Below, in pieces: positions 33,421 through 63,573 of a stretch of 64,000 bases of DNA (within the stretch, counting starts at the first letter, position 1; every line of letters starts with the position of its first letter). A program made the position numbers and the translations under genes. The stretch covers positions 54,002,001 to 54,066,000 of the forward strand of contig NC_043013.1 of assembly GCF_006345805.1 (NCBI RefSeq). The letters run 5' to 3'. Origin of the DNA: Octopus sinensis (Eukaryota). The notes under the pieces are model-generated. The model was given only the letters and a program-made list of their open reading frames with translations. It did no database searches and was not told where the DNA came from.

Positions 33421-33522
33421 AATAACAGGAAGCTTTATGAAAATAGACAAAAGACGAAGGCAGGTGGAAAACAAACAAACAATTGTATTAGTATGGCGCT
33501 CAGGAAATATAAATAAAACAAG

Positions 33523-33560
33523 TCTTTAACGTTTCGAGCCTACGCTCTTCAACAGAAAGA
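33523..33560 (-). ncRNA. Hammerhead-like motif in the PLE 3' end (core variant CUGUUGA)
   Basis: TCTTT CTGTTGA A GAGC-GTAG-GCTC GAAA CG TT AAAGA has the layout of minimal PLE hammerheads, but the conserved A6 is U. Confidence 0.7.
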
Positions 33561-33728
33561 TACACAGAGAGAAAAAAAACACAGAAAGAAGGAGAGAAAA
33601 AAATGTGTGCAGTAACTAACGAATCAACATGGCGATCTGATTTCGGCCAGAGGTCAAAGATCAAACATGAGACGTGAGAGCGAAATAAGGGGAGATAATA
33701 GGGTTGATAATAGGGTTGAATGACCAGC

Positions 33729-34072
33729 TATTAGTGCGTAGGAGGGGTCTGGACGTGTGTATGTATAGGGTTGGTGTATATATTAGTATGTATTAGTATG
33801 TATAAGGGTGTGTGTGTGTGTGTGTATGAGAGAGTATTAGTGCGTAGGATAGGTCTGGACGTGCGTATGTATGGGGTTGGTGTATGTATTAGTATGTATT
33901 AGTATGTATTAGTACGTATTAGTATGTATAAGTGTGTGTGTGTGTGTATGAGAGAGTATAAGTGCGTATGAGGGGTCTGGACGTGTGTATGTATAGGGTT
34001 GGTGTATGTATTAGTATGTATTAGTATGTATTAGTACGTATTAGTATGTATTAGTTGGTGTATGTATTAGTA
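33729..34072. repeat. About 3 copies of a ~105-120-bp tandem unit in the PLE 3' region
   Basis: tattagtgcgtaggaggggtctggacgtgtgtatgtatagggttggtg...(tattagtatg)n recurs at about 33729, 33835 and 33956. Confidence 0.85.
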
Positions 34073-34079
34073 TGGCACA

Positions 34080-35543
34080 TCATATATGATGTGATGTGTA
34101 AAGTCGTGTGGTGTAGTGAGGAGAAGAGGGGGGAGAAGGGGAGGGGAAGAGGAGGGGGAGGAGAGGAGGGGGGAGAGAGAGGAGGGGGAGAAGGAAGGGG
34201 AGGAGGAGGGGGAGGAAGGAGGAAAGAGGGAGAGGGGGAGAGAGAAGGGGAGTGAGGGAGCAGAGGGAAGGGGAAGAGGGAAGGAGGGAGGGAGAAAGAG
34301 GGAAGAAGGGAAGGGGAGTAGGGGTGAAAGGATGAAGGACTGAAGAAGTAGGGGTCGGGGGGAAAGGATAGGTGAGGAGGGGGGAGAGGGGGTTAGATGA
34401 GGAGGGGGGAGAGTTGAGACCAAATGGCGTATAAGAGCGAAGAGAGAAGATTAATTCCTGTTCACTGCGCAAACGGGAATCCGGATGGCCTCTGTGTAAG
34501 GACAAACCGAACACAGATAGGTGTTGCAAGGAGTGACCGGTGGAGCGGAAATGGTGTGAGACCGGTGTGTCGTTCGCAAGGTGGATGTCACGAAGGTGTT
34601 CCACGAACCGGTCAGCCAAGCAGCGTCCCGTTTGTCCGATGTACAAGGAATTGCAGAGAGAGCAAGAGACGCAATAGATAATATTGCTGGAGGTGCAGGT
34701 GAAGGAGTGGATGATGGGATAGGGTCGATGGTGGGTGCTAGTGAGGCGGGTGGTGTTAGAGAGGTAAGGGCAAGTGCGGCAACGTGGGCGGGAGCAGGGG
34801 AACGAGCCGGGTTGGGAGGTAGTGTCAGGGAAGGAGCTATGGACCAAAAGGTCTCGAAGGTTGTGGGCTCGTTTGAAAGAGGGGAGGGGTCGGTTAGGGA
34901 AGAGGTGTGAAGTGGACGGGTCGGATTGGAGATGACGGAAAGCTCGAAGAATGGTGCGTTGGAGACGTAGGGTCGTGGGGTGGTAAGTGAGGGGAAACGG
35001 GAGGCGGGAGACTACAGGGCGGGTTCGGGGAGAGAGAGCAGATACACGGTCCACGGACCGTGCTCTGGCAAGGGCGGTGTGGATAGTGGTGAGGGGGTAT
35101 CCACGTAGGGTGAAGTGGTGAGCCATTCGTTGAGACTGAGTCTCAAAGTCATGGTCGTCACTACAGAGCCTACGTAGACGGAGGAATTGGGAATAGGGGA
35201 TGGAAAGCTTGGTGTGTTCTGGGTGGGAGGAAGAGAAGTTGAGGTATGAGTGTGAGTCTGTGTGTTTGTAGTGAATGGAGGTGGTAAGAGTGGAGTGAAG
35301 AATGCTAACCGAAATGTCGAGGAAGGAGACAGAGGTGTTGGAGATAGTGGAAGTGAAGTGGAGGGCTGGATGGAAAGATTGGACGAAAGAGAGGAAGGAA
35401 TCTAGATGTTCACGGGAGAGTGAGGTGGCACCGATAATGTCGTCAATGTAACGACCATATAGTTCAGGAGTGGGACCAGTGAAATTAGAGAATATTTGGG
35501 CCTCAACATAGCCAACGAACAGGTTCGCATAGTTGGGGCCCAT
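34080..35543 (-). CDS. Penelope-like RT (C-terminal half), thumb, Cys linker and GIY-YIG endonuclease; N-terminally truncated
   Basis: Motifs MGPNYANLF (RT motif B), YGRYIDDI (motif C), FLDISV, YKHTDSHSYL, SIPYSQFLRLRRLCS, CSRPRCRTC, IIYCVSC..C..LYIGQTGR..RFVEH and GLN. The frame is uninterrupted. Confidence 0.93.
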   Translation of the reverse strand: MGPNYANLFVGYVEAQIFSNFTGPTPELYGRYIDDIIGATSLSREHLDSFLSFVQSFHPALHFTSTISNTSVSFLDISVSILHSTLTTSIHYKHTDSHSYLNFSSSHPEHTKLSIPYSQFLRLRRLCSDDHDFETQSQRMAHHFTLRGYPLTTIHTALARARSVDRVSALSPRTRPVVSRLPFPLTYHPTTLRLQRTILRAFRHLQSDPSTSHLFPNRPLPSFKRAHNLRDLLVHSSFPDTTSQPGSFPCSRPRCRTCPYLSNTTRLTSTHHRPYPIIHSFTCTSSNIIYCVSCSLCNSLYIGQTGRCLADRFVEHLRDIHLANDTPVSHHFRSTGHSLQHLSVFGLSLHRGHPDSRLRSEQELIFSLRSYTPFGLNSPPSSSNPLSPLLTYPFPPTPTSSVLHPFTPTPLPFFPLSPSLLPSSPSLCSLTPLLSPPLPLSSFLPLLLPFLLPLLSLPPPLLPLLFPSPSPPSSPHYTTRLYTSHHI

Positions 35544-35777
35544 TCGCGTTGTATGTATATATATATATAATATGTATGTATATATATATATATTTATAAT
35601 GGTATGTATATAGCATATATGTGGTGTGTGTGATATGTATATATGTATGTATAATATATATATCCATATAGTATCATATATAGTAGTATAATATATGTAT
35701 AATATATATGTAATATATATGTATATGTATATATATATGGCATACGTATATATAATTTATATATGTATATATATACA

Positions 35778-36042
35778 TTCGTTCCGAGTTCGTCGCCATG
35801 CTGCTGGACTTTGTAGGTACATAAAAAGCACCATTTGGGCATGGCCATTGCTATCCAAGATTGGCCCTCATGCCGGTGGCACGTAAAAGCACCCACTGCA
35901 TTCTCATTGTGGTTGGCATTAGGAAGGGCATCCAGTTGTAGAAACTCTTCCAGATCAGATTGGAGTTTTGTTCGCCAGACTTCAGTCAAATCATCCAACC
36001 CATGCTAGCATGGAAAGCGGACATTATGATGATGATGATGAT
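35778..36042 (+). mobile_element. (GAT)n-tailed retroposon, family C (RTE-like 3' end)
   Basis: gtggttggcattaggaagggcatccag...ccaacccatgctagcatggaaa followed by (gat)n. Other copies lie at about 608-992(-), 26097-26315, 49680-49935, 52140-52350(-) and 58153-58440(-). Confidence 0.75.
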
Positions 36043-36057
36043 GTATGTATAAATACA

Positions 36058-62078: not shown

Positions 62079-62232
62079 TACATCACATTTTGTCCACTCA
62101 GACCATTCACTCACAACACATTCCCTAATACATGGAGTACTGCAAATACGCTGTTCAGCAGGTTTTGGAATCTCATCACAGTAAGAGTCTTGCAGTGATA
62201 TGCTTCGAGACAAATCTTCCTTTTCAACACAC
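62079..62232 (-). CDS. THSD7: THSD7-like gene, first exon visible in window (internal, phase 2-0)
   Basis: Acceptor ...aaattag|G and donor GTA|gtaagt. Translates CVEKEDLSRSISLQDSYCDEIPKPAEQRICSTPCIRECVVSEWSEWTKCDV, containing the TSP1 WSxWxxC motif. Confidence 0.9.
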
Positions 62233-62404
62233 CTAATTTAAGAATAGGAAATGATAAAACAAAGTGAATCAGTAAAATCAAAACAAAGTCTACAAATTAT
62301 GATGCAGTAAAAATAAAAGCAAAATAATGGCTGATGTTTAAAATATTTTCTTAAATCATTTGTTGTCTTGATGAGATCATGTAATACTCATGGGAATATG
62401 GTAC

Positions 62405-62691
62405 TAGAGCTGTGGAGTCAGAGTCGTGGAGTTGGAAACAATTAAGGGGTAGCTGAAGTCGGAGTCGGTAAAACTATACTGACTGATTCCGACTCACAAT
62501 ATCTTTATTCTTTAATATAAACCATTTATGACATATAGGCCTACACAAAGTACAAGCGTATGCATATGCTTTGAGATATGTAGACCACAATCCCTGAATT
62601 ACATAAAGAGGAGTCAGTCAGAGTTGGAGTCAGAGGTACCAATTTTAGAGGAGTCAGAGTTGAAGTTTTTTGTTTCAACTCCACAGCCCTG
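62405..62691. mobile_element. hAT-type MITE
   Basis: TIRs tagagctgtggagt/actccacagccctg, an exact 8-bp TSD TATGGTAC at 62397-62404 and 62692-62699, and internal GGAGTC repeats. Confidence 0.85.
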
Positions 62692-62958
62692 TATGGTACT
62701 AAAGCAAACCCTTTGTTGAGCAGCCTTTATAATTCTACTGTAGTAAACCTGTTGAATATTTTTTAGCCAGTTAATCAGCTGCTTAGATTATATATATATA
62801 TGTATATGTAATATATATATATATATATTATATTAAATTAGAGATAAAACCACTATTAGGCAAATCATACGATGAAAAACTTAAGCCAATACATAAGATT
62901 ATTTAATTTATATTATTTAAATATATAACAAAATTATTAAAAAATATAATTAATATAA

Positions 62959-63022
62959 CACTACGATCGTTTCATGGCTGTTAATTTCTTTAAATTTTCG
63001 AGTTACAGTCATTCATCAGGTG
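62959..63022 (-). ncRNA. Type I hammerhead ribozyme
   Basis: CAC CTGATGA ATGACTGT...ACAGCCAT GAAA CGATCG TA GTG, with a palindromic stem III and GUA cleavage triplet. Confidence 0.75.
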
Positions 63023-63051
63023 GTTTAAATATTTAAGTTAAATATTTCAAT

Positions 63052-63114
63052 CACCTGAAGAATGACTGTAACTCGAATTTTTACGAATTGGACAGCCATG
63101 AAACGATCGTAGTG
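63052..63114 (+). ncRNA. Type I hammerhead ribozyme (N7=A variant)
   Basis: CAC CTGAAGA ATGACTGT...ACAGCCAT GAAA CGATCG TA GTG. Confidence 0.75.
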
Positions 63115-63573
63115 TTATACTAATTATCTTTTTTTAATAATTTTGATATATATTTAAAATAATATAAATTAATTAATCTTATGTATTGGCTTAAGTCTTT
63201 CATTGTATGATTTGCCTAATAGTGGTTTTATTTCTAATTTAATATAATATAATATTTTACTATAAAATTGAATTCAATCCTAAATCTGATTTTTCCCTGT
63301 AAGTTTGGATTTATTCCCTAATATTTTATTATTAATATATATATATATGTATGTATGTATGTATGTATATGTATGTATATGTATGTATGTATGTATGTAT
63401 ATGTATATGTATGTATATGTATATGCATGTATATGTATATGTATGTGTATGTATATGTATGTATATGTATTTATATATATATATGTATTTATATATATAT
63501 ATATGTATATATAGATATGTACGTATATATATATGTACGTATATATAGATATGTACGTATATATATATGTACG

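Follow-up and report, generated by a model that had tools for sequence, protein, structure and literature searches.

Four insertions in TA microsatellite

The window is the whole 64,000-nucleotide stretch of the Octopus sinensis genome that was analyzed (contig NC_043013.1, positions 54,002,001 to 54,066,000). As the initial annotation described, it holds four hammerhead-bearing insertions, at 33.4, 42.0, 50.0, and 62.8 kb, each with TA microsatellite on both sides (Table 1), with the caveat that the motif at 33.4 kb is a core variant. The 33.4-kb insertion, family A, is a coding Penelope-like element (PLE) as had been proposed, but the copy in the window is 5'-truncated within the RT. The three ORF-less insertions, families B, C, and D, have the annotated layout of (TA)n, inverted arm, direct arm(s), and (TA)n, with the correction that the inverted arm of B carries the 3' half of the hammerhead only.

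Table 1. Insertions, flanking TA tracts, and hammerhead motifs in the window
Feature	Position	Strand	Description
Degenerate (TA)n tract	32957..33420	.	at the 3' end of A
Family A (N1), Neptune-like PLE	33421..35549	-	RT C-half, CX4CXXC linker, GIY-YIG, 3' pseudo-LTR; 5'-truncated
Hammerhead-like motif of A	33527..33560, core at 33555	-	putative; A6U core, extra A ahead of stem II, GUU triplet
(TA)n tract	41639..42016	.	left of B
B inverted arm	42017..42214	-	ends at short site (unit position 460); 36-bp internal duplication
B direct arm	42203..45200	+	six 488-bp units and ~70 nt, six hammerheads, long end site
B type I hammerheads	42445, 42932, 43417, 43901, 44389, 44878	+	structure scan
(TA)n tract	45201..45584	.	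right of B
C inverted arm	49980..50415	-	type I hammerhead 50157 (structure scan), short end site
C direct arm	50416..50963	+	one 476-bp unit and 70 nt, type I hammerhead 50657 (structure scan), long end site
D left arm	62830..63033	-	pseudo-LTR exon of element H, minor subfamily, short end site; type I hammerhead 63019 (structure scan)
D right arm	63034..63335	+	8 nt of leader exon joined at 63041/63042 to hammerhead exon (spliced form), long end site; type I hammerhead 63055 (structure scan)
(TA)n tract	63336..63854	.	right of D

Type I hammerheads were sought in the window by a structure scan, for which 30 block-shuffled windows served as the null and gave a mean of 0.03 matches at the loosest threshold and none at stricter ones. 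Stem II starts with AT and ends with AT ahead of GAAA in all three ORF-less families, and their triplet is NUA, as annotated. The motif of A was absent from the strict scan and was recovered by a widened one; its A6U core, which is fixed in the family and goes with the GUU triplet, departs from the canonical core, and it is regarded as a putative ribozyme. Related motifs in the fetched flanks retain the canonical core. A compensation test over eight D-type variants found 94% of cells paired and two pairs changed on both sides, a covariation score equalled by 1 of 500 shuffles. The predicted fold of the D monomer was not a hammerhead (z +1.07), and an Rfam scan of the window returned zero hammerhead matches at E ≤ 1, giving only miRNA noise from microsatellites.

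By its sequence, family A (hereafter N1 for the coding element) is Neptune-like, having an RT, a CX2-5CXXC linker, a C-terminal GIY-YIG, and copies arranged pLTR-ORF-pLTR (L232, L233, L235, L236, L238). N1 is young, with open frames up to 1009 aa; Pfam gave no match at E ≤ 0.001 on the truncated A protein and a weak GIY-YIG signal. Both A and a second family, N2, resemble the Neptune clade in the order of RT, linker, and GIY-YIG, in partial tandems, and in microsatellite bias, whereas the fixed A6U core and an essentially single end site set A apart from it.

TA tracts as probable insertion targets

Each of the four families is young and occurs as dispersed copies. A (TA)n tract directly adjoins the 3' end at 33/42 (A), 36/37 (B), 36/39 (C), and 99/108 (D) loci, against 0/30 in a LINE control and a random background of 0.9-3.7%, where the loci counted are the best-scoring young copies and the control is a single, older family. 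The (TA)n preference was thus borne out against another repeat. The causal link that had been suggested to the long TA tracts was not: where tracts lie on both sides, their medians are 41 (3') and 37 (5') (n = 65, p = 0.59), and the total TA flank length was not above a length-biased background, a small one of 15 tracts, giving no sign that insertions lengthen tracts. Among 103 single-armed copies the 3' tract is longer (40 versus 25, p = 0.001) because 34 of them lack a 5' tract. Likely, the TA tracts are pre-existing targets.

Family D and the Hydra-clade element H

Of the three parasite families originally proposed, D has to be withdrawn. Sequence comparison identifies the 62.8-kb element as the pseudo-LTR (pLTR) of a coding Hydra-clade PLE, here called element H, and not as a separate parasite. 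D has the same sequence as the pLTR exon of H and occurs as a monomer or an inverted pair; unlike a retrozyme, it does not build tandem units apart from a coding element. It lies ~230 nt behind the GIY-YIG ORF, in spliced form at 7 of 30 endonuclease loci, and in the long copies L265 and L267 it is found in front of the ORF.

The assignment of H to the Hydra clade was made from motifs and an alignment with five relatives. Like the clade as described (PMC8557442), H has a C-terminal GIY-YIG (with CxxC and CxH), an RWK-type N-terminus of the RT (KWK in L266), DKT (L265, L266), a CxCX5C linker, a canonical hammerhead in the pLTR, and insertion in (TA)n; Pfam detected no GIY-YIG domain in the H protein. 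The pLTR exceeds 2 kb and has two alternative introns, and there is an Asn-rich insert. For an octopus member of the clade, Hydra-1_Obim, a preference for (TA)n is listed (PMC8557442, Craig et al. 2021), but it has another protein start and hammerhead than H and is listed there without a pLTR (PMC8557442). H also differs from the clade in its many intron-less genomic copies, none being described in the relevant part of that account (PMC8557442).

Families B and C and the search for their partner

B and C consist of tandem ORF-less units, each with a predicted type I hammerhead, in arrays of up to 18 (B) and 15 (C) pieces, and on this organization they are classed as putative non-LTR retrozymes. 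Metazoan non-LTR retrozymes are built in the same way, every unit containing a type I hammerhead, and PLE dependence has been proposed for them (PMC7229834, bioRxiv 10.64898/2026.07.22.740005). In the parts of these sources cited, they are not described as targeting (TA)n or as having inverted arms or a pair of fixed ends, all of which B and C have. Furthermore, 24 of 57 Xenopus retrozyme families match known repeats (PMC7229834, bioRxiv 10.64898/2026.07.22.740005), whereas B and C have no pLTR homology to the sampled PLEs.

The initial annotation held that the partner PLE could not be determined from the window, and B and C indeed match none of six sampled coding families. Comparisons to the end sequences of N1, N2, H, H2, H3, and the sixth family (L282) gave nothing above shuffles. 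The best B/C comparison reached z 2.4, under the shuffle maximum, within an incomplete sampling of PLE families. A 25-nt match of C to H3 was rejected as low complexity, and another, distant Hydra protein used as a query led largely to the same places. In L260, L284, and L383, where B or C is found close to a coding PLE, TA or other DNA lies between the two, and these cases were set aside as independent insertions.

With B and C unrelated in sequence to every coding family sampled, it is the copying footprint that argues for their mobilization in trans. Two-armed insertions combine one long and one short end in 13/14 cases for B, 16/16 for C, and 31/31 for D (Hydra), and this footprint, present in all three ORF-less insertions, upholds the Penelope-type mobilization that had been proposed. 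B and C likely depended for their copying on a Penelope enzyme borrowed in trans, probably one of Hydra type rather than that of the neighboring Neptune copy. The two end sites lie 70, 77, and ~80 nt apart in the Hydra families, 35 nt in N2, 100 nt in B, and ~120-128 nt in C, the spacings of B and C matching no sampled family exactly.

It is unlikely that the Neptune family N2 mobilizes B and C, though N2 does have two end sites (16 and 15 copies) and is part of the only chimeric junction seen. At this locus, L231, the N2 arm is inverted and stops at its long site, and a piece of the N2 3' UTR connects it to a C array, which stops at its own short site. TA is absent from the joint, and the rest of the N2 arm was not found beyond; C is thus joined to N2 and not to Hydra. 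This joint is, however, one case in ~24 C insertions and could be explained by an insertion with deletion, and the 35-nt spacing of N2 contrasts with the 100-128 nt of B and C. Chimeric joints are moreover not specific, as the C copy in L055 abuts a different ORF-bearing repeat.

Spliced copies of element H

A single AG acceptor 12 nt ahead of the hammerhead core and two GT donors define introns of 897 and 2020 nt in the pLTR of H. Family D occurs with the GT-AG intron kept or precisely removed from either donor: by exact pattern, the junction letters of 100 matches listed of 113 were 75 proximal-type, 21 unspliced, and 4 distal. The leader was present in 19 of the 21 proximal-type loci fetched. 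The presence in the genome of copies precisely spliced from either donor shows that sense RNA is copied after splicing, and the D insertion in the window is likely the intron-less front end of H, copied from spliced RNA. In 77 unique copies (9 unclear, unspliced ones over-sampled on purpose, and sister subfamily rows left out), 33/36 proximal-spliced copies end within 47 nt of the junction, compared with 0/27 unspliced ones. Likely, the short spliced copies stop near the transcription start, the position of which is taken from the DNA ends.

An 897-nt GT-AG joint was also seen in contigs of run X7, with a variant form in X1, X2, and X4; these joints are not counted as evidence because the RNA nature of the runs is a guess and spliced copies exist as DNA.

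Spliced D might instead be a self-propagating family, SINE-like and derived from the Hydra pseudo-LTR, with an internal promoter of its own. The spliced copy is the commonest form among the 100 matches listed of 113, an internal promoter is known from Drosophila Penelope (PMC2377424), and the spliced label is somewhat clustered on a tree of ~200 columns (124 rows less 20 unclassified and 14 duplicates), with 19 label changes against a mean of 25.4 in shuffles, 1 of 500 being as low. The clustering is due in part to pattern-based sampling, a sister subfamily of 28 copies caught by one pattern biasing the tree sample. Spliced and unspliced copies are interleaved on this tree, at least five of the label changes being forced by well-supported branches, and no large, well-supported spliced-only clade was seen on it. 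Several subfamilies contain spliced copies together with unspliced and ORF-linked ones, including a pair with identical exons, and we consider an independent SINE-like family improbable.

In the window, the left arm of D differs from the right arm at 16/203 positions and from L336 at 2/195. The leader of the right arm is short and lies at the palindrome center, and neither arm has the AG end of the intron. Since the sequences place the two arms in two subfamilies, they suggest that two RNA templates were used in one event. The window's pair is the only clear case of discordant arms (1/31). Discordant arms in L327 and L338 proved to be junction and duplication artefacts, and L410 was rejected as a full-length element with one spliced end, there being no ORF between its two copies.

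One machinery or several

Penelope-type mobilization by one shared machinery is a further part of the initial annotation that was not supported, as at least six coding PLE families adjoin TA tracts and the N1 footprint is unlike those of B, C, and D. Most N1 ends (66/74) fall at one site, with almost no second end site and none of the ends close to where the second would be expected, and only 2/36 N1 insertions are two-armed, compared with 12/20 for B, 15/23 for C, and 29/82 for D. Lacking the two-site footprint, the window's Neptune-like N1 copy is probably not the partner of B and C. That N1 drives all three non-coding families is very improbable: it is young, targets (TA)n (33/42), and lies within 30 kb of them, but D belongs to the Hydra element and has no similarity to N1.

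Least credible is the spread or growth of the B and C arrays at the DNA level, by satellite amplification or hairpin repair and without RNA, to which their tandem structure and some variants mosaic along the array (in the window's B array, three variants in 4-5 of 6 units) might point, but against which stand the fixed end sites with the one-long-one-short rule, the spread of copies 97-99% identical across many different contigs, and hammerheads that are intact and show compensatory changes among relatives.

Proposed mechanism and relation to known systems

We consider it quite probable that the window records four separate insertions into TA, namely a truncated Neptune-like PLE, a spliced Hydra-clade pLTR, and two ORF-less arrays likely copied in trans by a PLE enzyme that is probably of Hydra type. 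A pair of PLE proteins would nick both strands within (TA)n, and from each DNA end reverse transcription would start at one or other of two fixed sites, both U/A-rich and lying 3' of the hammerhead, after which the two cDNAs would be joined head to head or one would be lost. In the Hydra transcript, such a pair of sites would be present at either end. Short ORF-less D copies, which stop at the RNA 5' end, would arise when priming takes place at the 5' pair of a spliced sense mRNA, and the B and C arrays would come from priming on retrozyme RNA in multimeric or circular form.

A wider, tentative reading is that sense RNA, whether spliced or unspliced, serves as the template, with two priming sites per event and possibly two RNA molecules, that introns are kept in full-length elements only because spliced copies lose the promoter and die, and that the second template slot carries retrozymes such as B and C. 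Why PLEs pass through an RNA step with their introns retained is described as unknown (PMC8557442), and an antisense template has been proposed to explain it (PMC3846280). If true, the joint reading would overturn the antisense self-priming account of head-to-head arms and intron retention.

The basic system is already known and published, including retrozymes, PLE hammerheads, and TA targeting. Among openly accessible papers, a literature search found no description of spliced or intron-less genomic PLE copies, PLE twin priming, or octopus PLE hammerheads. Start sites are now mapped in several PLE families and two retrozymes of one genome, which makes the partner question testable in vitro.

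Element H resembles D. virilis Penelope in its probable start site within the pLTR, a 5' intron end abutting helix I of the hammerhead, inverted arms, and an optional tail (PMC2377424, PMC4209133, PMC3681739). D. virilis Penelope keeps the intron in genomic copies (PMC2377424, PMC4209133, PMC3681739), whereas most sampled hammerhead-exon copies of H have lost it, from either donor. As in the Anolis Poseidon element PAc, both strands would be cut and extended, with two internal RT starts defining the tail (PMC11167929, Frangieh et al. 2024), and PAc likewise has a predicted dimer and an AT-rich target (PMC11167929). Nicking of both strands and the use of two internal start sites have been demonstrated in vitro for this lizard element only (PMC11167929). 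The PAc start sites are not homologous to the target (PMC11167929), whereas here the copy ends lie in U/A-rich patches spaced 70-128 nt apart.

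The hammerhead-bearing features of the window are real and of known classes; the initial annotation is corrected here, and what is added is evidence from genomic copies concerning template, splicing and priming.

Family D and the template for copying

D, read at first as a non-coding parasite family, forms the terminus of a coding Penelope-like element (PLE) of the Hydra clade, referred to as H. In locus L085, D lies ~230 nt behind a GIY-YIG ORF, an arrangement present in 7 of the 30 loci of that endonuclease, and many of the remaining loci have a GT donor at that same position, followed by a long AT-rich stretch. 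In longer stretches of H, the ORF is followed by the distal donor and, after ~1.1 kb, by the proximal donor; a further 897 nt lead to the AG acceptor and the hammerhead exon. In two long copies (L265 and L267), this exon, preceded by the unspliced end of the intron, lies ahead of the ORF and runs into it. The H protein bears the Hydra-clade marks given by Craig et al. (PMC8557442). Its ORF has a long Asn-rich insert, resembling inserts described for rotifer Penelopes (PMC3846280), and a GC content of 21%.

Three forms of D are present in the genome: one keeps the intron, and in the other two the acceptor is joined to the proximal or to the distal donor. An exact pattern matched 113 places; judged by their junction letters, the 100 matches listed comprised 75 proximal-type, 21 unspliced and 4 distal copies. 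The leader was present in 19 of 21 proximal-type loci fetched, the other two (one insertion) lying at a palindrome centre. Among 77 unique copies chosen by exon, ends at most 47 nt upstream of the junction were seen in 33/36 proximal-spliced and 0/27 unspliced copies. Many spliced copies stop 28 nt upstream of the junction at TTAGTTC, which resembles the initiator consensus; these ends probably mark the 5′ end of the RNA.

Introns are excised precisely at two canonical donors, showing that a sense, spliced RNA was the copied template; an antisense template, as proposed for PLEs (PMC3846280), does not fit these copies. The spliced label changes 19 times on a 90-row tree, with at least 5 changes forced and clustering still above chance, and D is thus best read as a recurring by-product. 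Distal splicing excises 2020 nt including the inferred start site, so distal-spliced copies would be without a promoter, in agreement with the selection idea in PMC2377424.

Hammerhead motifs

The hammerhead descriptor matched six motifs in B (the array of 488-bp units), two in C (476-bp units) and two in D, and almost none in shuffled windows. The motif of the truncated PLE A, the fourth hammerhead-bearing insertion, is matched only when the core is widened (A6 = U, an extra A before stem II, a GUU triplet). The A6U change would weaken hammerhead catalysis. An extra base before stem II is typical of PLE hammerheads (PMC4209133). Relatives of B, C and D carry compensatory changes; in D-type variants, 94% of cells are paired and two pairs are changed on both sides. 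The short stem III is palindromic or nearly so, and by analogy with PMC4209133 this suggests cleavage as dimers. A degenerate motif and a further array are included in the table.

Features located in the window and in loci fetched from the same genome
Feature	Location	Strand	Description
Exon-like frames	window 27934-57869	minus	similarity to thrombospondin type 1, scoring under the Pfam cut-offs
PLE-type stub	window 31729-31790		~60 nt, TA-flanked; matches both ends of the GIY-YIG ORF element in L282
Long TA tracts	window 32970-33420, 41639-42016, 45200-45584, 63335-63854		the four longest, 378-520 nt; each adjoins an element
N1 ORF	window 34401-35549		54% GC (window 33%)
Degenerate hammerhead-like motif	window 51284-51345		canonical core and stem II, stem I unclosed; TA flank lacking; match to family C limited to 11 nt
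Further hammerhead array	L230:2478-3171		tandem, unit ~345 nt
N2-C chimera	L231:5800-8900		inverted N2 arm adjoining a stretch of N2 3′ UTR that switches into a C array
H ORF	L265:3548-5791, L266:3488-6064		long Asn-rich insert

Targets and clustering

Searches of the octopus's own genome returned 1056 candidates for B, 1142 for C, 2066 for D and 1140 for the end of A, which are first-look figures and not copy numbers; identity was mostly 96-99% among the ~40 candidates scored for each. A (TA)5 run started no more than 12 nt from the 3′ end in 33/42 (A), 36/37 (B), 36/39 (C) and 99/108 (D) cases; the corresponding figure was 0/30 for a LINE taken from this window, and background positions gave 0.9% and 3.7%. 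The proposed (TA)n preference is thus borne out, and (TA)n is the target of nearly all Hydra-clade members (PMC8557442). The suggested link between insertion and very long TA tracts finds no support: where both flanks are present the tracts are equal in length, and their sum is no greater than in a background that is small and length-biased. The tracts look like targets. That the four longest ones adjoin elements would also be expected of larger targets; among 161 sampled insertions, just 11% are flanked by a tract of at least 200 nt, the window being a local excess.

The window belongs to a 2.7-Gb animal genome and is rich in TA microsatellites. Thrombospondin-type exons on the minus strand lie on either side of the insertions, which are therefore probably intronic; the exon-like frames suggest a large host gene, presumably THSD7-like. 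TA-adjacent positions are ~4 times denser than around LINE controls, and the presence of four insertions within 30 kb is explained by several families that have a target in common and a region rich in it. Fetched flanks held ~25 additional hammerhead motifs, and the 99 kb surrounding the LINE controls held none. The stub matches the L282 element ends at 98% over 48 nt and makes a fifth PLE-type insertion, just beyond 33421..63335.

Two-site footprint

The 3′ ends of B, C and D fall at two fixed sites in each family, and two-armed insertions have one end at each site in 13/14, 16/16 and 31/31 cases, respectively (one locally duplicated D pair is counted twice). This pairing matches the in vitro behaviour of the Anolis Poseidon element PAc, whose RT starts at two internal sites and extends both strands (PMC11167929). 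In the window's D pair, the only clear discordant case in 31, the arms differ at 16/203 positions, each having at most two differences from another copy in its own subfamily. The simplest interpretation is that a single event drew on two templates, with later gene conversion a possible alternative. In B and C, variants are usually common to both arms and several are private to a single array, as would be expected if each array had a single template or source; mosaic variants within the window's B array make this less than certain. Rolling over a circular template is possible.

Partner of B and C

A coding PLE that shares its end exists for D (element H); B and C have no sequence similarity to the six coding families sampled (N1, N2, H, H2, H3 and one in L282). 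End-site spacing is 100 nt in B and ~120-128 nt in C, compared with 70-80 nt in three Hydra families and 35 nt in N2. Together with frequent inverted arms and H-like hammerheads, this spacing favours a Hydra-type partner, which we consider somewhat probable. N2, another Neptune family, is an unlikely partner; the single chimeric locus L231 points to it, with a 3-nt overlap at the joint with the C array and possibly a template switch. N1, with one site accounting for 66/74 ends and two arms in 2/36 insertions, is a highly improbable one.

N1 is the family of A, which encodes the C-terminal half of the RT, a CX4CXXC linker and a GIY-YIG domain and is Neptune-like as judged by these motifs; longer copies are pLTR-ORF-pLTR partial tandems. 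N2 (L271, L273, L276) has two ORFs, forms 4.4-kb tandems and shows a U3-A8 core swap in its hammerhead. Two further Hydra families (L380, L385) have intact ORFs and atypical hammerheads, with a CCGAAGA core in H2 and a weak stem II in H3.
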